Assembly: GCF_057098645.1 (NCBI RefSeq)
Contig: NZ_CM169472.1
Length of the DNA stretch: 64,000 nt
Strand: one strand, 5' to 3'
Of the stretch, positions 6,210 through 58,017 are shown one piece after another. Position numbers and translations under genes: made by a program. Below the pieces are notes generated by a model that made no database searches, was not told where the DNA came from, and worked only from the letters and a program-made list of their open reading frames with translations. Each line of letters begins with the position of its first letter. Position 1 is the stretch's first letter.

Positions 6210-6285
6210 GGGTCGTTAGCTCAGTTGGTAGAGCAGTTGACTTTTAATCAATTGGTCGCAGGTTCGAATCCTGCACGACCCACCA
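6210..6285 (+). tRNA. lysT: tRNA-Lys (anticodon UUU)
   Basis: GGGTCGTTAGCTCAGTTGGTAGAGCAGTTGACTTTTAATCAATTGGTCGCAGGTTCGAATCCTGCACGACCCACCA; cloverleaf with encoded CCA. Confidence 0.9.
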
Positions 6286-6320
6286 CTAACCTAGTTAGTT
6301 GTAGTATCCAGCGTAGTATC

Positions 6321-6396
6321 GGGTGATTAGCTCAGCTGGGAGAGCACCTCCCTTACAAGGAGGGGGTCGGCGGTTCGATCCCGTCATCACCCACCA
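6321..6396 (+). tRNA. valT: tRNA-Val (anticodon UAC)
   Basis: GGGTGATTAGCTCAGCTGGGAGAGCACCTCCCTTACAAGGAGGGGGTCGGCGGTTCGATCCCGTCATCACCCACCA. Confidence 0.9.
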
Positions 6397-6398
6397 CC

Positions 6399-6474
6399 GG
6401 GTCGTTAGCTCAGTTGGTAGAGCAGTTGACTTTTAATCAATTGGTCGCAGGTTCGAATCCTGCACGACCCACCA
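6399..6474 (+). tRNA. lysW: tRNA-Lys (UUU)
   Basis: Identical 76-nt tRNA-Lys unit, 2 nt after valT. Confidence 0.9.
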
Positions 6475-6525
6475 CTAATTACGGTGGGTTCGGTGGAAGT
6501 AGTTTGTAGTATCCAGCGCAGTATC

Positions 6526-6601
6526 GGGTGATTAGCTCAGCTGGGAGAGCACCTCCCTTACAAGGAGGGGGTCGGCGGTTCGATCCCGTCATCACCCACC
6601 A
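6526..6601 (+). tRNA. valZ: tRNA-Val (UAC)
   Basis: Identical 76-nt tRNA-Val unit. Confidence 0.9.
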
Positions 6602-6604
6602 CTC

Positions 6605-6680
6605 GGGTCGTTAGCTCAGTTGGTAGAGCAGTTGACTTTTAATCAATTGGTCGCAGGTTCGAATCCTGCACGACCCACCA
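6605..6680 (+). tRNA. lysY: tRNA-Lys (UUU)
   Basis: Identical 76-nt tRNA-Lys unit. Confidence 0.9.
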
Positions 6681-6733
6681 ATTTTAACATCAAACTCAGA
6701 TGTTAAGCGTGAAGGATAACGTTGCGCCAGCAA

Positions 6734-6778
6734 CGGCCCGTAGGGCGAGCGAAGCGAGTCATCCTGCACGACCCACCA
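6734..6778 (+). repeat. tRNA-Lys 3-prime-end remnant repeat, copy 1
   Basis: CGGCCCGTAGGGCGAGCGAAGCGAGTCATCCTGCACGACCCACCA ends in the last 17 nt of tRNA-Lys; near-identical copy at 7123..7166. Confidence 0.6.
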
Positions 6779-6826
6779 ATCTTAAAGATTGGCCCCGAGT
6801 AAAAATCTTTCAGGTAACACCCGTAT

Positions 6827-6902
6827 GGGTCGTTAGCTCAGTTGGTAGAGCAGTTGACTTTTAATCAATTGGTCGCAGGTTCGAATCCTGCACGACCCAC
6901 CA
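6827..6902 (+). tRNA. lysZ: tRNA-Lys (UUU)
   Basis: Identical 76-nt tRNA-Lys unit. Confidence 0.9.
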
Positions 6903-6935
6903 TCCTGAATGATTAAAGCAGCATAATCCCGCAAG

Positions 6936-7011
6936 GGGTCGTTAGCTCAGTTGGTAGAGCAGTTGACTTTTAATCAATTGGTCGCAGGTTCGAATCCTGC
7001 ACGACCCACCA
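6936..7011 (+). tRNA. lysQ: tRNA-Lys (UUU)
   Basis: Identical 76-nt tRNA-Lys unit, last of the array. Confidence 0.9.
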
Positions 7012-9245: not shown

Positions 9246-10183
9246 TGGTGATGATGTGAATGGCCAGACACCCCTTCATTCAGGTGGCAGTCTGGCCCAT
9301 GACAAGGTTGATATTCCATCTGAATGGTGGCGTGCTCAATCTGATAGTGATCCATCAGGTAGTGTTGGATCTGATCCAACAAGGCATCGTGATCGTGTGG
9401 CGGGATCACCTGCACATGCAACGTCATCACCGGCTTCTCGCCTACCATCCATACATGCACATGGTGCACATTGCGGACTTCCGGGATTTCCCGGCACATA
9501 CGACGCTTCAGTTCAGCGATATCCAGCGATACCGGTGCACCTTCAAGTAATTCATTCACGCTATCTTTCAACAGTCGCCACGCGCTACGCAGAACCAGAA
9601 GCGACACCAGTATCGAGAGAATGGGGTCAGCAGGTGTCCAGCCGGTCCAGATAATAATCAACGCGGCAATAATAGCCCCAACCAAACCCAGCAGGTCCCC
9701 GAGCACATGCAGTGCCGCTGCGCGCACGTTGAGGTTTTTCTCTTCGCTGCCGTGATGAAGTAACCAGAAAGAAAGTATATTTGCCAGCAACCCAGCCACG
9801 GCAATTGCCATCATCATGCCGCCCTCGACCGGACGCGGTGTGCGGAAGCGTTCTATCGCCTCCCAGACAATCAAAATGGTAATCACCACCAGGGCGATGG
9901 CATTCACAAACGCCGCGAGCGTGGTCAATCTTAGCCAACCGAAAGTGTGGCGAATGGTGGGAGGTCGACGTGAAAATTGCACGGCGAGTAGGGCGAAAAG
10001 CAGGGCAGCAGTATCGGTCAACATATGACCCGCATCGGCCAGCAATGCCAGAGAACCAGAAAGAAAACCACCAACGACTTCTACCAGCATAAACCCGGCA
10101 GTCACGCCGAAAGCATACAACAAGCGACGAGCATTATTATCTTCTGGCAGGTGTGAGGACGTGTGTGAGTGTGAGTGCGCCAT
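9242..10183 (-). CDS. zitB: Zinc efflux cation-diffusion facilitator ZitB
   Basis: 313 aa, His-rich N- and C-termini ([15 protein letters not shown]), CDF transmembrane core. Confidence 0.9.
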
Positions 10184-23911: not shown

Positions 23912-24943
<1,032 letters not shown>

Positions 24944-24983
24944 CCGCTGATTTACCCGGCGCAGTCTCTCCTGCGCCGGTGTA

Positions 24984-25941
24984 TTAACCTATCTCCTGTA
25001 ACGCATGTCTCTGGCGTTCGACGATATTGGTCCACAAATTGTCTTTATCGTCAGTCCACAAATTAATCAGCAAGGCAAAAAAGCGTTCAGCTGCCGGAGA
25101 AAGCACGGCATCTTTGCGGCGAATAATCCCCAATGTCCGACGTATAACGGGTTCCACCAGTGGGATACCAATAATCGAAGAATAGGGCGCATGGGGCATT
25201 GCCAGACCAGGAAGCGCTGAAATCCCCAGTCCTGCCTCCACCAGTCCTAATGACGTCGAAAGATGACGCACTTCGTAAAACCAGTCCAGCTTCCAGGGCT
25301 TGTCGGCTAGCTGTTGTTCTATCAACAGTCGGTTGCCGCTGGAGGAGCGTACGCCAATCATTTTGTAACCCACTAACTCCTGCCATTCTACAAGCTGCTT
25401 TTTGGCCAATGGATGAATTTGTGACGTTGTTCATGTTTATGCCAAAGTCTGATTCGTTACATAGCTCCGATTCCATGCAATTATTCGTGCCTTGTTCCAG
25501 AATCCGCACTTTAATATTGGGATACAGCTCATTAAATTTACCGATTGCCAGCGGTAAAAAATAAAATACTGCGGTCGGAATACACGCTAACGTCACCATA
25601 CCACGATGATAAGCATTCATATCACGAATATTAAAAAGCGTTTCATCGAATTTCTTTATTAATTCCCGCGCCTCCGGGAGCAACCTTTTTCCTGCTTTTG
25701 TTAACGTAACCTTGCGAGTTGTACGCTCAAATAGTTGAATATGTAAATCTTCCTCCATCTTTTTTATTCTTCGCGTTAATGCAGGTTGCGTAATGTTGAG
25801 TAATTTAGCGGCATTGTTAAATGAACTGGACTCTGCCAGTATGACAAATGCCTTCATACTTGATAATTCATGCTTCATTATTACTCCGGAAAATGGAAGC
25901 GTTGATTTTGGGTGGCTGGCCGTTAAAAATTTTAACTGCAT
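24984..25941 (-). pseudogene. ybhD: LysR-family regulator YbhD, apparently frameshifted at an A5 run
   Basis: N-terminal HTH half is in one frame (to about 25410) and the LysR C-terminal half is in the +1 frame (25409..24984); the switch coincides with the homopolymer at 25403-25407. Confidence 0.6.
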
Positions 25942-26061
25942 TTAGCCAACTTAAATTAATGAAAAAATGTTATTAATCGTTGAGCTAAAGTCATTAGAGA
26001 TGCTTTGCCCTTAATGTAACCATATCGCAATAAGTTATGTTTTTAAATTGAGGGCATTATT

Positions 26062-27114
26062 ATGAAAAAAATACCCTGCGTGATGATGCGAGGTGGAACC
26101 TCGAGGGGCGCGTTCCTGTTAGCGGAACATTTACCCGAAGATCAAACGCAGCGCGATAAAATATTGATGGCAATTATGGGTTCCGGTAACGATCTGGAAA
26201 TTGACGGTATTGGCGGCGGTAATCCACTGACCAGTAAAGTCGCCATTATAAGCCGTTCCAGCGATCCGCGTGCTGATGTTGATTATCTGTTTGCTCAAGT
26301 TATCGTCCATGAGCAACGTGTCGATACCACGCCTAACTGCGGCAATATGCTGTCTGGCGTTGGGGCATTCGCCATTGAAAATGGTTTGATTGCAGCGACT
26401 TCGCCAGTTACTCGCGTACGTATCCGCAACGTCAATACGGGTACGTTTATCGAAGCTGATGTGCAAACGCCAAATGGTGTAGTCGAGTACGAGGGTAGCG
26501 CCAGAATTGACGGCGTACCGGGTACTGCCGCACCGGTTGCACTCACTTTCCTGAATGCCGCTGGAACCAAAACCGGAAAAGTTTTCCCGACTGATAATCA
26601 GATTGATTATTTTGACGATGTCCCGGTGACCTGTATCGATATGGCGATGCCAGTCGTCATTATTCCGGCTGAATATCTGGGAAAAACAGGCTATGAATTA
26701 CCGGCGGAACTGGATGCCGACAAAGCATTATTAGCCCGCATTGAATCTATCCGTCTACAAGCGGGTAAAACAATGGGCTTAGGCGATGTCAGTAATATGG
26801 TTATCCCTAAACCTGTGCTTATTTCTCCAGCGCAGAAAGGCGGGGCAATTAATGTGCGTTATTTTATGCCGCATTCTTGCCATCGCGCGCTGGCGATAAC
26901 CGGTGCTATTGCTATTTCCAGTAGTTGTGCATTGGAAGGCACCGTCACCCGACAAATCGTCCCTTCTGTAGGATACGGCAATATCAATATTGAACACCCC
27001 AGTGGTGCGCTCGACGTTCATTTAAGTAATGAAGGTCAGGATGCCACGACGTTACGCGCATCTGTTATTCGGACAACCAGAAAAATATTTTCCGGTGAAG
27101 TTTATCTTCCCTGA
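26062..27114 (+). CDS. ybhH: YbhH, PrpF/AcnD-accessory-like isomerase family
   Basis: 350 aa, synteny ybhD-ybhH-ybhI. Confidence 0.8.
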   Translation: MKKIPCVMMRGGTSRGAFLLAEHLPEDQTQRDKILMAIMGSGNDLEIDGIGGGNPLTSKVAIISRSSDPRADVDYLFAQVIVHEQRVDTTPNCGNMLSGVGAFAIENGLIAATSPVTRVRIRNVNTGTFIEADVQTPNGVVEYEGSARIDGVPGTAAPVALTFLNAAGTKTGKVFPTDNQIDYFDDVPVTCIDMAMPVVIIPAEYLGKTGYELPAELDADKALLARIESIRLQAGKTMGLGDVSNMVIPKPVLISPAQKGGAINVRYFMPHSCHRALAITGAIAISSSCALEGTVTRQIVPSVGYGNINIEHPSGALDVHLSNEGQDATTLRASVIRTTRKIFSGEVYLP

Positions 27115-37577: not shown

Positions 37578-37994
37578 TTATACCTCTGAATCAATATCAA
37601 CCTGATGGTGAGCAATGGTTTCAACCATGTACCGGATGTGTTCTGCCATGCGCTCCTGAAACTCAACATCGTCATCAAACGCACGGGTAATGGCTTTTTT
37701 GCTGGCCCCGTGGCGTTGCAAATGACCGATGCATAGCGATTCAAACAGGTGCTGGGGCAGGCCTTTTTCCATGTCGTCTGCCAGTTCTGCCTCTTTCTCT
37801 TCACGGGCTATCTGCTGGTAGTGACGCGCCCAGCTCTGAGCCTCAAGACGATCCTGAATGTAATAAGCGTTCATGGCCGAACTCCTGAAATAGCTGTGAA
37901 AATATCGCCCGCGAAATGCCGGGCTGATTAGGAAAACAGGAAAGGGGGTTAGTGAATGCTTTTGCTTGATCTCAGTTTCAGTATTAATATCCAT
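37578..37994 (-). CDS. gam: Lambda Gam (RecBCD inhibitor)
   Basis: 138 aa, [61 protein letters not shown]... Confidence 0.95.
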
Positions 37995-41575: not shown

Positions 41576-41617
41576 TGAACCGCCCCGGGTTTCCTGGAGA
41601 GTATTTTATCTGTGAAC

Positions 41618-42508
41618 TCAGGCTGCCAGATCATTATTTCCGATGGAAGCATAATAAGCTTTTTCTGCTTCTGCCGGAGGAATATGGCCCAGCCTTTCCA
41701 GCAATCGTCGATTGTTATACCAGTCCACCCACGTGAGTGTGGCCAGTTCCACTTCTGCACGGTTTTTCCAGCTCTTACGGTGTATTACCTCCGCTTTGTA
41801 AAGACCATTGATGCTCTCCGCCATCGCGTTGTCATACGAGTCGCCAGTACTCCCTGTTGATGCCAGTAATCCGGCTTCCTTAAGCCGCTGCGTGTAGGCC
41901 AGCGATACATACTGAGAACCTTTATCACTGTGATGGATTGTGCCGGACGGCCGACGGGCCCACAACGCCTGCTCCAGTGCATCCAGCACGAATGTTGTTT
42001 CCATGGATGATGAGACCTGCCATCCCACGATGTATCCGGCGAACACATCAATGATGAACGCCACATAAACGAAGCCCCGCCATGTGCTGACGTAAGTAAA
42101 ATCAGCCACCCACAGCTGGTCAGGTCGTTCTGCCACGAACTGACGGTTTACGCGGTCGCCTGCGGCAACGGCTTTCCGGCTGATGGTCGTACGGACCTTT
42201 TTACCCCGGAGAACACCGGCAAGTCCCATAACTGCCATGAGACGTGCCACAGTGCATCTGGCCACTCTGATACCTTCCCGTAACAACTGACGCCAGACTT
42301 TACGCACACCGTATACCTGGTGATTTTCATCGTATACGCGCTGTATCTCTTTCTTCAGCCAGTCATCGTGCTGCGCACGGGCACTGCGTTTATCCGGATG
42401 ATGTCGCTGTTGCTGACAGTGGTAATACGTTGACGGGGCAATATGCAGTTCGCTGCATAGCGGTCCGACCCCGTACTGCTCACGCAGCTTATCCAGCAGT
42501 GGCATCAT
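41618..42508 (-). CDS. IS629-like transposase OrfB (DDE/integrase domain)
   Basis: 296-aa ORF with IS3-family DDE region ([10 protein letters not shown]...[11 protein letters not shown]). Confidence 0.85.
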
Positions 42509-42831
42509 TTTTTCCAGAGGCGGTCGAACTCCGCCTTCGCAAAATAAGCGGAAGCCTGGCGAAGGATATCGTTACTGCGGCGCAGTTCACGATTTTCACG
42601 CTCCAGCTCTTTCAGACGCTGACGTTCAGCGGTGGTGAGCCCGCCATCACCGCCCCCGGTATCCCGCTCATGCTGGCGAACCCAGACACGCAGAGTCTCC
42701 GGCGTACAGCCAATCTTTGGAGCAATGGAACAAATTGTCGCCCATTGTGAGTCATATTCATCCTGACTTTCCAGAACCATACGAATCGCCCGCTGACGGA
42801 CTTCGGGGGAAAAACGAGTATTTTTAGTCAT
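42505..42831 (-). CDS. IS629-like transposase OrfA (HTH)
   Basis: 108 aa, [50 protein letters not shown]... Confidence 0.85.
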
Positions 42832-42885
42832 CCTGTTTACCTCTTTCTCAGGGAGTTTAGTCTCCAGGATTTCCGGGGCGGTTCA

Positions 42886-50706: not shown

Positions 50707-52556
50707 ATGTCGATTAAACATTACGATGTTGTCAGGGCGGCGTCGCCGTCAGACCTTGCGGAAAAGCTGACACACAAACTGAAAGAGGGCTGGCAGCCAT
50801 ACGGCGGACCGGTTGCCATTACGCCGTACACACTGATGCAGGCGGTGGCTATTGAAGGAGAGCCACAGGTCGGCCCTTCATCTGAGCCGGATTGGTACTA
50901 CGTCATCGTACTGGCCGGGCAGTCCAATGCCATGGCTTACGGTGAAGGGCTTCCGCTGCCGGATTCATACGATGCTCCGGATCCGCGCATTAAACAGCTG
51001 GCGCGCCGCAGTACAGTGACGCCGGGCGGGGCTGCCTGCAGATATAACGATATTATTCCGGCTGACCACTGTCTGCATGATGTGCAGGATATGAGTACGC
51101 TGAATCATCCGAGGGCTGACCTGAGCAAAGGGCAGTACGGCTGTGTCGGTCAGGGTTTACATATTGCCAAAAAACTGCTCCCGTATATCCCGAATAACGC
51201 GGGGATCCTGCTGGTACCATGCTGTCGTGGTGGTTCGGCATTTACCCAGGGCGCGGAGGGGACATTCAGCGAGTCCACGGGGGCCAGTCAGGATTCGGCA
51301 CGCTGGGGGTGGGCAAGCCGTTATATCAGGATCTGATTTCCCGCACAAAAGCGGCATTGCAGAAAAATCCCAAAAACGTTCTGCTGGCCGTCTGCTGGAT
51401 GCAGGGTGAGTTTGACATGAGCGCCGCCACCCACGCACAGCAACCTGCGCTGTTTACAGCCATGCTGACACAGTTTCGTGCTGACCTCTCCGTGTTTAAC
51501 GCGCAGTGCCATGGTGGCAGTGCTGCAGATGTGCCGTGGATTTGTGGTGACACGACGTATTACTGGAAAAATACATACGCTACCCAGTACGACACCGTGT
51601 ACGGCGGGTATAAAAACAGGGAGAGTGAGGGCGTTTATTTTGTGCCCTTCATGACAGACGGTAACGGCGTCAATACCGCCACTAACGCGCCGGCAGAAGA
51701 TCCGGATATTCCGGCATCAGGATATTACGGTGCGGCATCGAGAACGAATGGAAACCAGGTATCATCAAACCGCCCGACACATTTCAGTTCATGGGCGCGC
51801 AGGAGCATTATTCCGGATCGTCTGGCAACCGCTATTCTGAACGCAGCCGGGCGCACCTCAGCCTTCATCAGTGGTAAGGCACCGGAAATCAAACCCTCGC
51901 CCGGCGGCAACACGCCATCGGGTCCGTCTGCAGATACGTCCGTTCGCACAATCTCCCTGCTGCCGGCAGCCGGAGAGGCTGCTGCGCAGGGCTGGAGCAT
52001 TAAGGATGGCGGAATTCAGTTGTCAGATGGTGTATTTAAGATCACCAAGCAGAGCAATAAAACCTGGTCCCTGACGCATCCGGTGGATGACGCAATTACC
52101 CTGCTGACACAGGGCGGCAGACTGACCTGTAAGTTCCGCCTGTCAGGCGCACTGACCAACAATCAGTTCGGGCTGGGGATTTATCTGTATACGGATGCTC
52201 CCGTTCCTGATGGTGTGGCGATGACGGGTACCGGTAATCCGTTCCTGATGTCGTACTTCACTCAGACCACTGACGGCAGAGTGAATCTGATGCATCACAG
52301 GAAAGCCGGAAACACGAAGCTGGGGGAGTTCGGCGATTACGGTAACGACTGGCAGACGCTGGAGCTGGTGTTCACCGCCGGCAGTGCCACGGTTACTCCG
52401 AAACTGAATGGAGTGGCTGGCCCGGCATTCCAGGTTATAAAAGACAGTCTGACACTGGGACTGAATGCGCTGACGCTGACGGATGTTACAAAAAATGCAG
52501 CGTATGGCGTTGAGATAGAAAGTCTGATGCTGGAGATAAATGCACCGGCAGCATAA
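50707..52556 (+). pseudogene. Prophage sialate O-acetylesterase-like (NanS-p family) gene, split by a frameshift at a G5 run
   Basis: N-terminal esterase half (GQSN motif) in ORF 50707..51336 and C-terminal half in ORF 51219..52556; the frames meet at the G-run near 51281-51285. Confidence 0.6.
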
Positions 52557-52728: not shown

Positions 52729-53756
<1,028 letters not shown>

Positions 53757-53760
<4 letters not shown>

Positions 53761-54197
53761 TGCCACTGCTGGATAAGCTGCGTGAGCAGTACGGGGTCGG
53801 ACCGCTATGCAGCGAACTGCATATTGCCCCGTCAACGTATTACCACTGTCAGCAACAGCGACATCATCCGGATAAACGCAGTGCCCGTGCGCAGCGCGAT
53901 GACTGGCTGAAGAAAGAGATACAGCGCGTATACGATGAAAATCACAAGGTATACGGTGTGCGTAAAGTCTGGCGTCAGTTGTTACGGGAAGGTATCAGAG
54001 TGGCCAGATGCACTGTGGCACGTCTCATGGCGGTTATGGGACTTGCCGGTGTTCTCCGGGGTAAAAAGGTCCGTACGACCATCAGCCGGAAAGCCGTTGC
54101 CGCAGGCGACCGCGTAAACCGTCAGTTCGTGGCAGAACGACCTGACCAGCTGTGGGTGGCTGATTTTACTTACGTCAGCACATGGCAGGGCTTCGTG
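53757..54197 (+). pseudogene. IS629-like OrfB, N-terminal part (copy 2), interrupted by IS21-family insertion
   Basis: Matches copy-1 OrfB up to ...[14 protein letters not shown], then reads into the foreign element. Confidence 0.8.
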
Positions 54198-54294
54198 CGT
54201 ATTCCGCTCTATTCGATCACGGATTGGCATCGAAGTCCGATCAGCGATTCGCATCCATTCGATCAACCGGGAACTTAACTTTTTCTACCGCTTT

Positions 54295-55050
54295 TTAACG
54301 CGTTTTTTCGCTGCTTTCCACTACCGGGGGATTTTTCCTCAGTGACTCTCCCTGAAGGACCACTCGGTGTGAGTTATGTACCAGTCTGTCCAGGATGGCA
54401 TCTGCTGTTGTTGGGTTCTCCATCAGACCATGCCATTTATCTACCGGGAACTGGCTTACCACTATCGTGCTGCTTTGTCCGTAACGATCCTCTATGAGCT
54501 CCAGAAGGTCATTACACTGGGCGTTACTTAACTGTTCCAGCCCCAGATCGTCCAGGATTAGAACCTGTATTTTTTGCAACTGTTTCAGATATTTCAGCCA
54601 GCTGCCATCAACACGTCCCTGAGCCAGTTGTTCCAGTAATCGCCCGGTTCTACAGTACCGGACGCTGTGTTTCTGTCGACATGCCTGTTCGCCCAGCGCA
54701 TTGGCTATCCAGCTCTTGCCACATCCTGTCGGACCGGTTATCAGCAGGTTTTTCCTGTGGGTTATGTAGTGGCCGTTCAGCAGTTCTCTCATCTGTTCAG
54801 CCCGCAGACCTCTTGAGGCCGGATAGCGCAGCCCTTCCGGTGTTGCCTGGTATTTCAGGCCGGCATTTTTTCTCAACCGTGCCACACGGCTGTTTTCCCT
54901 GCTCAGAAGCTCGTCATCAACCAGCAGCGTCAGCCTTTCCTCGAACGACAGTTCGTCGTAGGTCTGAGGCGTTTCCCGCTGCCGTATCAGGCTCCCGGCC
55001 ATCGCCGGGAGTTTCAGTTGGGTCAGTTTGTTTAACAGGTTATCACTCAT
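54295..55050 (-). CDS. istB: IstB-like ATPase helper of IS21-family transposition
   Basis: Walker A GPTGCGKS; start taken at MSDNLLNKLTQLKLP within the longer ORF. Confidence 0.8.
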   Translation of the reverse strand: MSDNLLNKLTQLKLPAMAGSLIRQRETPQTYDELSFEERLTLLVDDELLSRENSRVARLRKNAGLKYQATPEGLRYPASRGLRAEQMRELLNGHYITHRKNLLITGPTGCGKSWIANALGEQACRQKHSVRYCRTGRLLEQLAQGRVDGSWLKYLKQLQKIQVLILDDLGLEQLSNAQCNDLLELIEDRYGQSSTIVVSQFPVDKWHGLMENPTTADAILDRLVHNSHRVVLQGESLRKNPPVVESSEKTR

Positions 55051-55066
55051 ACTGTTGTTCCTTCTG

Positions 55067-56602
55067 TCAGTGGTAGTAGCCCGGACCACGCAGGTTTTCA
55101 TGCTCTGAAGCATATGCCGGATGTTGTTCGCCCTGGCGGGATAATGGAAGCTCCAGGTTCTCCCGATGGTGACGCAGCAGATTGTCGATAAAGCGTCTGT
55201 CAGGGGCGTTATAGTGCAGGGCAACGTAACAGGCCTTTTCCAGCCGTTCCGGGCCGTATTTTTTCTGAAGTGCCAGCAGCCCCAGAACTGCACGATAAGC
55301 CAGTTCCGGATGGGGTTTTGCCTTCAGCATGGATTCAACCACCCGGCCTGTGGACGGGCCCGTACGTTTTCCCTGCTCGATCAGGCGTTCCGGTGTCCAT
55401 GTCCCGTGCTGCCGGTGGCGCTCTGGCATGTGAAGCGGATTGGTTGTGTGTTTATATTCATGTGTGCTGCGCGGATGTTGCGCCACACACTGCCCCTTGT
55501 GCCAGAGCTGTACCACCGACTGCCCCGCCTTCAGTGACAGACGCTGACCGACCAGTTCGTGTGGAACGGAGTACCAGTGACGGGCATATTCAACGTGGTA
55601 GTCAGGGCCAACCTTCACAGCTTTGTATTCCGTGTATTCATAAGGTGCCAGAGGCAGCGGAGAGAGTGCTGGCGCATCCAGTATGCGGAAGCGTTCTGCA
55701 CGGGTTTGATTGCCGTACCCCTTCATTGGCCGGTTATTCATGTCTGTCAGTAACTCCCTAAGGCGCGCATTCAGCGCCCTGAGCGTGTGGAAGGTTTCAT
55801 TACGGATGCGGGCAAGAAGCCATCGTTCAACGATGAGGACGCCGTTTTCTGCTTTTGGTTTATCTTTAGGTTTGCGTGGTCGGGCCGGGATGATAACCGT
55901 GCCATAGTGCTCAGCCAGTGCCTGATAACTGTCGTTGATGACAGGCTCATATCGATCGGCCTTTTTCACTGCGCTTCTGAGGTTATCGGGGATGAGCAGC
56001 TTCGGTACGCCGCCCAGGAAGGTCAGGCAACGGCTGTGGGCATTTAACCATGACATCATGTCCTGACCTTCGCACGCTTCAACGTAGGTATAGTTGGACG
56101 CCCCCATTACGGCCACGAAGATTGCCACGCGGCGTATCTCACCGGTGTCCGGATTAATAACAGGAACCGTAGGACCACAGAAGTCGATAAAAAGCTTTTC
56201 GCCGGCACGATGCTCCTGGCGCATGGAGAGACGTCGCGTTTTTTTCCACTCCCGGTAGCAACGGCAGAAGTGCGAGTATCCCATCGCTTTGTTACCCGCC
56301 TGTGCCTTGTATTCCATCCACAACAGTTGCCGCGTCACACCTGGTTTTCTCATTTCCGTATCGAAGTACAACATGTCAGGCATTACAAGCTCTGATGCAA
56401 AGGTGTCTTTGGGCGGAAAAATGAGTTTCTCCAGCGTGTCATGGGATATATCAGCAGGTAATGGCCATGACAGAGAAGAGGCTTTGAAGCGGGCAAGAAC
56501 CTCAAAAACGGTTGAGGCGCTGATGTGTAACGTCAGTCCGATACAACGGTTAGTCAGCTTCTTGTCGAACTTGAGCTGAAGGATCTTAAAACAGGTTTCC
56601 AT
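55067..56602 (-). CDS. istA: IstA-like IS21-family transposase; start uncertain
   Basis: Long ORF with N-terminal HTH and DDE-type core, ends 16 nt upstream of istB. Confidence 0.7.
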   Translation of the reverse strand: METCFKILQLKFDKKLTNRCIGLTLHISASTVFEVLARFKASSLSWPLPADISHDTLEKLIFPPKDTFASELVMPDMLYFDTEMRKPGVTRQLLWMEYKAQAGNKAMGYSHFCRCYREWKKTRRLSMRQEHRAGEKLFIDFCGPTVPVINPDTGEIRRVAIFVAVMGASNYTYVEACEGQDMMSWLNAHSRCLTFLGGVPKLLIPDNLRSAVKKADRYEPVINDSYQALAEHYGTVIIPARPRKPKDKPKAENGVLIVERWLLARIRNETFHTLRALNARLRELLTDMNNRPMKGYGNQTRAERFRILDAPALSPLPLAPYEYTEYKAVKVGPDYHVEYARHWYSVPHELVGQRLSLKAGQSVVQLWHKGQCVAQHPRSTHEYKHTTNPLHMPERHRQHGTWTPERLIEQGKRTGPSTGRVVESMLKAKPHPELAYRAVLGLLALQKKYGPERLEKACYVALHYNAPDRRFIDNLLRHHRENLELPLSRQGEQHPAYASEHENLRGPGYYH

Positions 56603-56742
56603 AGTGCTCCTGGATTTTCTCTTTCTGGACATTGACGTCTCCACTGGTTTAAACACGGCAATGGAGACTGTGGTGAAAAGAGTTAATTCCCGGAGTGACT
56701 GGCAGGATGCCAATCAATGATCGGAAGCATGCCAAATCGTGA

Positions 56743-57291
<549 letters not shown>

Positions 57292-57303
57292 GTTCACAGA
57301 TAA

Positions 57304-58017
<714 letters not shown>

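Follow-up and report, generated by a model that had tools for sequence, protein, structure and literature searches.

The locus described here lies in a 64,000-nucleotide stretch of contig NZ_CM169472.1 (RefSeq assembly GCF_057098645.1), which is called the window throughout. The genes follow each other in the order pgl - ybhD - ybhH - ybhI - ybhJ, with the same synteny as in E. coli K-12 (Table 1). The initial annotation had reported that ybhD, the gene of a LysR-type regulator, is split, and the list of open reading frames (ORFs) with their translations bore this out: the N-terminal part with the helix-turn-helix (HTH) and the LysR-type C-terminal part are encoded in different frames. The longest mechanical ORF for the HTH-bearing part spans 25087-25941. 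Position 25941, which had been taken as the end coordinate of the gene, corresponds to an upstream in-frame ATG, and the start annotated by RefSeq in related genomes is found at 25878, where the protein begins with MKHELSS and a GGAG motif is located just before the start codon. The frame is broken at codon 158 as compared to conserved intact orthologues, which supports the view that ybhD is a pseudogene in this strain.

Table 1. Coordinates of ybhD, its remnants and the neighbouring features in the window.
Feature	Position	Strand	Description
pgl	23948-24943	+	Flank of ybhD
ybhD remnant (very probable pseudogene)	24984-25878	-	895 nt versus 954 nt (317 aa) in the intact gene
Frameshift-product ORF	25087-25878 (from the annotated start)	-	263 aa, composed of 157 native and 106 out-of-frame residues
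Orphan C-terminal ORF	24984-25409	-	141 aa, TTG start; remaining effector-binding domain in the original frame
A5 run (T5 on the plus strand), blamed in the initial annotation	25399-25403		Wild-type length, outside the lesion
Deletion junction	25407-25415		Sole retained copy of CAATGGATG (CATCCATTG on the gene strand)
ybhD-ybhH divergent control region	25879-26061		Intact, identical to O145 RM9872
ybhH (PrpF family)	26062-27114	+	350 aa, intact, divergent from ybhD

Domain content of the two ORFs

Pfam assigned HTH_1 (PF00126) to residues 6-64 of the N-terminal product (E = 2e-21), followed by LysR_substrate (PF03466) at residues 91-157 only, corresponding to profile positions 4-70. In the C-terminal ORF, LysR_substrate was detected at profile positions 91-205, and in the intact O145 protein the domain runs in one stretch from position 4 to position 204. 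Hence, about 20 profile positions (71-90) are absent between the two ORFs and the domain is not contiguous, an observation for which Pfam alone suffices and no reference genome is needed. The frame shifts at LysR_substrate position 70 of 209, after about one third of the effector-binding domain. What remains in the product is the winged HTH, the linker and this first third of the domain, and the other two thirds are gone. YbhD could be aligned over its full length with the LysR-type regulators NtcB, CbbR, OxyR and BenM, and in this alignment the missing segment corresponds to part of the NtcB effector domain. Compared to YbhD of K-12 (b0768), HTH_1 and both pieces of the effector domain are present at the same locus in the window, but the gene is 59 bp short and does not permit synthesis of the full-length 317-aa protein.

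A 59-bp gap bounded by 9-bp direct repeats

A megablast search with the region 24900-26061 against 5,426 complete E. coli genomes found 100% identity in 24 of them, nearly all of which carry an O145 label. In all 24 the match fell into two pieces, with a span of 1,221 bases in the record as compared to the 1,162 bases of the query. O145 RM9872, in which ybhD is annotated as intact (954 nt, 317 aa), served as reference for the alignment. It revealed a single clean 59-bp gap in the window gene, with 0 mismatches and 100% identity on either side. Alignment to intact alleles placed the gap at nucleotides 473-531 of the 954-nt gene, and a clean 59-bp gap bounded by repeats was likewise obtained with the K-12 allele.

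Intact alleles contain two exact copies of the sequence CATCCATTG (gene strand) at nucleotides 464-472 and 523-531, which flank the deleted segment. On the plus strand the repeat reads CAATGGATG, and its two copies are found 59 bp apart in O145 RM9872, K-12 and others. One repeat of 9 bp and the 50-bp spacer together account for the length of the deletion. Across the junction, where the 59 bp are absent, the window sequence is TTCATCCATTGGCCAAAAAG, and the intact form with the 59 bp present reads ...CATTGATTTTAGCCC... Identical repeats that bracket the lost segment, with exactly one copy left, correspond to the anatomy of a deletion between short direct repeats. Based on these alignments, we consider it very probable that ybhD is a genuine pseudogene, which arose when a single deletion between two direct repeats of 9 bp removed 59 bp.

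Recurrence in other ybhD alleles

Clustering at 90% identity grouped the frameshift product with two further members of 254 aa each, which share the NSSIGQKAACRM junction and carry other substitutions. At the DNA level, both members (L008 and L009) exhibited the same 59-bp deletion. L008 (run SRR25294113) differs from the window at 18 of 895 ybhD positions and is the same as ybhD of strain 23CRST009 except for the 59 bp; the 3.5-kb stretch around it is 100.0% identical to 23CRST009 and 99.9% identical to ATCC 8739. L009 (a metagenome scaffold, ERZ28649373) represents a third allele, which is 98.8% identical to the nearest complete genomes, where the gene is intact; the nearest of them differs at 10 sites. 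The alleles of the window and of L008 each equal an intact allele of a complete genome minus the same 59 bp. The junction is therefore common to the window clone, L008 and L009, whose ybhD alleles all differ, which indicates, as judged from the allele sequences, at least three independent origins of the identical 59-bp deletion.

Both repeat copies were present in 6 of the 8 intact alleles sampled; one allele had a first copy matching at 8 of 9 positions, and one divergent lineage (89.5% identity) was devoid of the repeats. Independent recurrence in other lineages can be understood because most sampled E. coli ybhD alleles hold both copies. Further carriers were sought with an exact 30-nt junction pattern, which had zero matches in JGI metagenome contigs, and with a protein search using the junction plus the frameshift tail, which returned no new carriers and just unrelated ybhD frameshift fragments. 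Public assemblies contain many ybhD fragments with other frameshift points (P0049-P0072), several of them on short contigs from read runs or metagenomes; some of these fragments may reflect assembly noise and not real lesions.

Proposed route of the deletion

The junction anatomy suggests replication slippage, i.e. misalignment at short homology, as the most likely route. The nascent strand with the first repeat copy would re-pair with the second copy, and this re-pairing would result in the loss of one copy together with the 50-bp spacer. Other routes that use short homology, for instance single-strand annealing following a break, would produce an identical junction. The classic deletion hot spots of lacI are RecA-independent slippage deletions between short direct repeats. 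The ybhD deletion resembles them in that the 9-bp repeats are exact and 59 bp apart, one copy is retained and the event is recurrent. It differs from them in that no slippage-enhancing hairpin was found between the repeats; when the interval from one repeat to the other was folded as DNA, on either strand, the z-scores (-0.2 to -1.0) did not reach significance.

An exceptional hot spot was considered and rejected, because ybhD has other comparably close repeats and the pair is not unique. In intact ybhD, further direct repeats of 11 bp at a spacing of 24 and of 9 bp at a spacing of 84 were identified (positions 1631-1665 and 1754-1846 of L001, the O145 RM9872 sequence). Deletions between these other repeats would be in-frame and would encompass 8 and 28 codons, respectively.

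Predicted consequences for regulation

Rodionova et al. 2022 (PMC9068703) reported strong up-regulation of ybhH in a ybhD deletion mutant of K-12, which also exhibited a growth phenotype with L-malate; regarding the function of ybhH, ybhI and ybhJ, this study was the sole informative source in the literature. Given the domain loss, the YbhD protein of the window strain is probably non-functional and its regulatory function lost. Extrapolating from K-12, we expect that the neighbouring ybhH(I) is probably de-repressed, since ybhH is up-regulated in the K-12 ybhD deletion mutant. The AT-rich intergenic region between ybhD and ybhH contains a perfect dyad, ATTAAT-N11-ATTAAT, at 25955-25977. It fits the T-N11-A pattern of LysR boxes and is a candidate YbhD operator.

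If the deletion is real, the HTH and linker of the 263-aa product might still dimerise and bind the operator, giving rise to an effector-blind repressor or a partial regulator and hence to no de-repression. Dimerisation and DNA binding are possible for isolated LysR N-terminal domains that include the linker helix, and in the window HTH_1 and the linker that follows it are intact, as is the candidate LysR box in the intergenic region. However, two thirds of the effector/oligomerisation domain are swapped for 106 nonsense residues, frameshifted and truncated products of this kind are usually unstable, and LysR regulators are usually tetramers that need their C-terminal domains. We consider residual binding unlikely and favor loss of YbhD function.

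The recurrent deletion could also be read as a one-way "off switch" for YbhD that is encoded by the repeats, is favoured by selection and de-represses ybhH-ybhI(-ybhJ) in some niches. This reading, which appears quite improbable to us, was set against neutral decay at a slippage-prone site.

In RM9872 (O145:H28), ybhD is intact and ybhH is interrupted by IS629 (L001 2722-4221; RM9872 checked), an interruption that is probably shared by other O145:H28 genomes. RM9872 and the window strain are alike in that the same small regulon is inactivated in the same clonal group. They differ in the gene that is hit and in the type of lesion: in RM9872 it is the enzyme gene by IS insertion, whereas in the window it is the regulator by deletion, with ybhH intact. 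One locus inactivated in two ways within one clonal group suggests relaxed selection.

Genuine allele versus assembly artefact

Alternatively, the 59-bp gap might have been introduced in assembling the source genome or calling its consensus, and the strain might truly have an intact ybhD. This would agree with the finding that the allele is present in no complete RefSeq genome. A junction probe of 64 bases, for which a coverage of at least 80% is possible only in deletion carriers, had full coverage in none of the 5,426 complete RefSeq E. coli genomes, and the intact 86-bp interval was present in 5,368 of the 5,426. In the closest backbones, which belong to O145:H28 strains, ybhD is intact and 100% identical on both sides of the gap; because these closest genomes are intact, the deletion is recent.

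Several lines of evidence argue against an artefact. The exact 263-aa frameshift product (P0001) was found on 12 other contigs in a collection of 15 billion proteins, including a 215-kb contig of the NCBI draft GCA_015672185.1 and Logan assemblies of the runs ERR4283519, SRR26133514 and ERR12122442. Four carrier contigs (L004-L007) were read; they exhibit the same junction, and their flanks of 5.6-6.8 kb are 0-1 bases off the window. The same junction with matching flanks is thus shared by an NCBI draft and at least three run assemblies with separate accessions, and it also occurs in two unrelated backgrounds. The k-mers that short-read assemblers work with are typically longer than 9 bp. Collapse of the 59 bp is therefore not expected, the 9-bp repeat being shorter than the k-mers. 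Finally, the backbone has no pattern of indel errors relative to O145:H28 RM12761, as described below. An artefact of this kind is very unlikely in our estimation, and we regard the deletion as a genuine allele of a small clone.

Homopolymer runs in the rest of the window

The initial annotation had counted ybhD as the second homopolymer frameshift in the window and suspected a systematic artefact. The closest genomes over 15000-39999 were those of RM12761 and RM13516, from which the window differs in a few SNPs, in the prophages and IS elements present and in tRNA number; the window backbone is ~99.95% identical to both O145:H28 strains. Every difference between the window and RM12761 was listed, with ~41 kb of backbone aligned. 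This comparison yielded zero homopolymer indels in the ~41 kb of backbone. The other backbone indels were an in-frame insertion of 6 bp in zitB (a GTGTGA unit at 10163-10168), an in-frame insertion of 3 bp in ybhH (GTC at 26653-26655; 350 aa versus 349 aa in RM12761) and one non-homopolymer base. This single base falls in the prophage gene gam (37578-37994), which is intact in the window (138 aa), whereas in RM12761 it is annotated as frameshifted and is without one C that is present at window position 37752.

Three 1-bp run-length differences (48271, 48346 and 51305) were found, all in a diverged prophage segment. G5 at 51306-51310, as compared to G6 in RM12761, splits a prophage nanS-p-like esterase (DUF1737 + SASA + DUF6645; window 50707-52556) into a 209-aa and a 445-aa ORF. 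We take this difference to be the other homopolymer frameshift of the initial annotation. The frameshift as such is real, but it is no sign of an artefact: the exact 209-aa product is found on at least 9 other contigs, including the complete chromosomes CP027362.1 and CP016755.1, and therefore represents a shared allele and not noise of this assembly. With the lone gene-splitting run difference being a shared allele and ~41 kb of backbone free of homopolymer indels, a systematic indel artefact was rejected.

With regard to IS content, a complete IS629 (IS3 family) is located in the lambdoid prophage at 41576-42885, with orfA (42505-42831) and orfB (41618-42508) on the minus strand. A second IS629 copy is present in two parts (53380-54196 and 56835-57335), which are separated by a 2.6-kb IS21-family element (54197-56834; IstA-like at 55067-56713, IstB at 54295-55293) in a nested insertion. 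The array of Lys/Val tRNA genes at 6210-7011 comprises seven genes (Lys, Val, Lys, Val, Lys, Lys, Lys), as compared to six annotated in RM12761, and the difference is a copy-number variation in a tandem array.

The A5 run and the one-base repair

The initial annotation had attributed the frameshift to an A5 run, which it placed at about 25403-25407 (for the actual position see Table 1). The run sits just beyond the deletion junction and has the same length in all intact alleles examined, namely those of K-12 MG1655, O145 RM9872, O157:H7 611, O18ac:H14, FDAARGOS_1277, 23CRST009 and CFSAN061763; the sequence GGCCAAAAAGCAG at the run shows no difference between K-12, O145 and other intact alleles. 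Five is the normal length, which speaks against a homopolymer indel as the cause and equally against the proposed alternative of a run-length sequencing error. The alignment with K-12 ybhD, put forward as a check, corroborated the frameshift and assigned it to the 59-bp gap instead of a homopolymer indel.

Removal of one A joins the two frames, as had been claimed, and yields ...NSSIGQKQLVEWQ... This one-base repair restores the frame because 59 + 1 = 60 is a multiple of three. The "repaired" protein contains GQ in place of the intact residues 158-179 (DFSPLVNEPFVLACRRDHPLAK), i.e. 22 residues are replaced by 2 and the protein is 20 residues short in net terms. Correcting the run, whose length is unchanged, does not give a full-length protein, and this is at odds with a homopolymer frameshift. 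None of the 5,426 genomes contained an intact orthologue of ybhD in which these 59-60 bp are naturally missing.

The model in which one extra A in the A5 run, be it a real slip or a sequencing error, shifts an otherwise complete ybhD accounts for the joining of the frames once one A goes, but it is practically untenable, as the intact alleles all have A5 here, the window gene has 59 nt fewer than its intact counterpart and not 1 nt more, and the repaired protein is without 20 conserved residues (Pfam positions 71-90). Based on the alignments to the O145 and K-12 alleles, a homopolymer indel was rejected. Homopolymer-tract frameshifts, which are known as sequencing errors and from phase-variable contingency loci, share with ybhD that the frameshift adjoins a run (here A5) and that a one-base edit restores the frame. 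The ybhD case is different in that the run length is unchanged as compared to intact alleles and in that the lesion encompasses 59 bp and is irreversible.

Discussion

With ybhD, a known and poorly characterised regulator gene has been inactivated by an ordinary deletion, for which a textbook mechanism of mutation is the likely source. The one feature of mild interest is the recurrence of the identical deletion in independent lineages. In terms of annotation, the appropriate label for ybhD is pseudogene by 59-bp deletion, and no "correction" should be introduced at the A-run. In terms of the assembly, ybhD gives no ground to suspect homopolymer errors. The case also illustrates a methodological point: a frame that can be restored by a homopolymer edit does not imply that the homopolymer is the lesion, and it was the missing profile positions that gave the clue.

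A sub-lineage related to O145:H28 can be recognised by the 59-bp junction, which makes a clean clonal marker. The genes ybhH and ybhI constitute a poorly understood, putative tricarboxylate/malate-related locus. The strain is probably without the YbhD regulator and may express ybhH/ybhI constitutively, with an effect that would be small.
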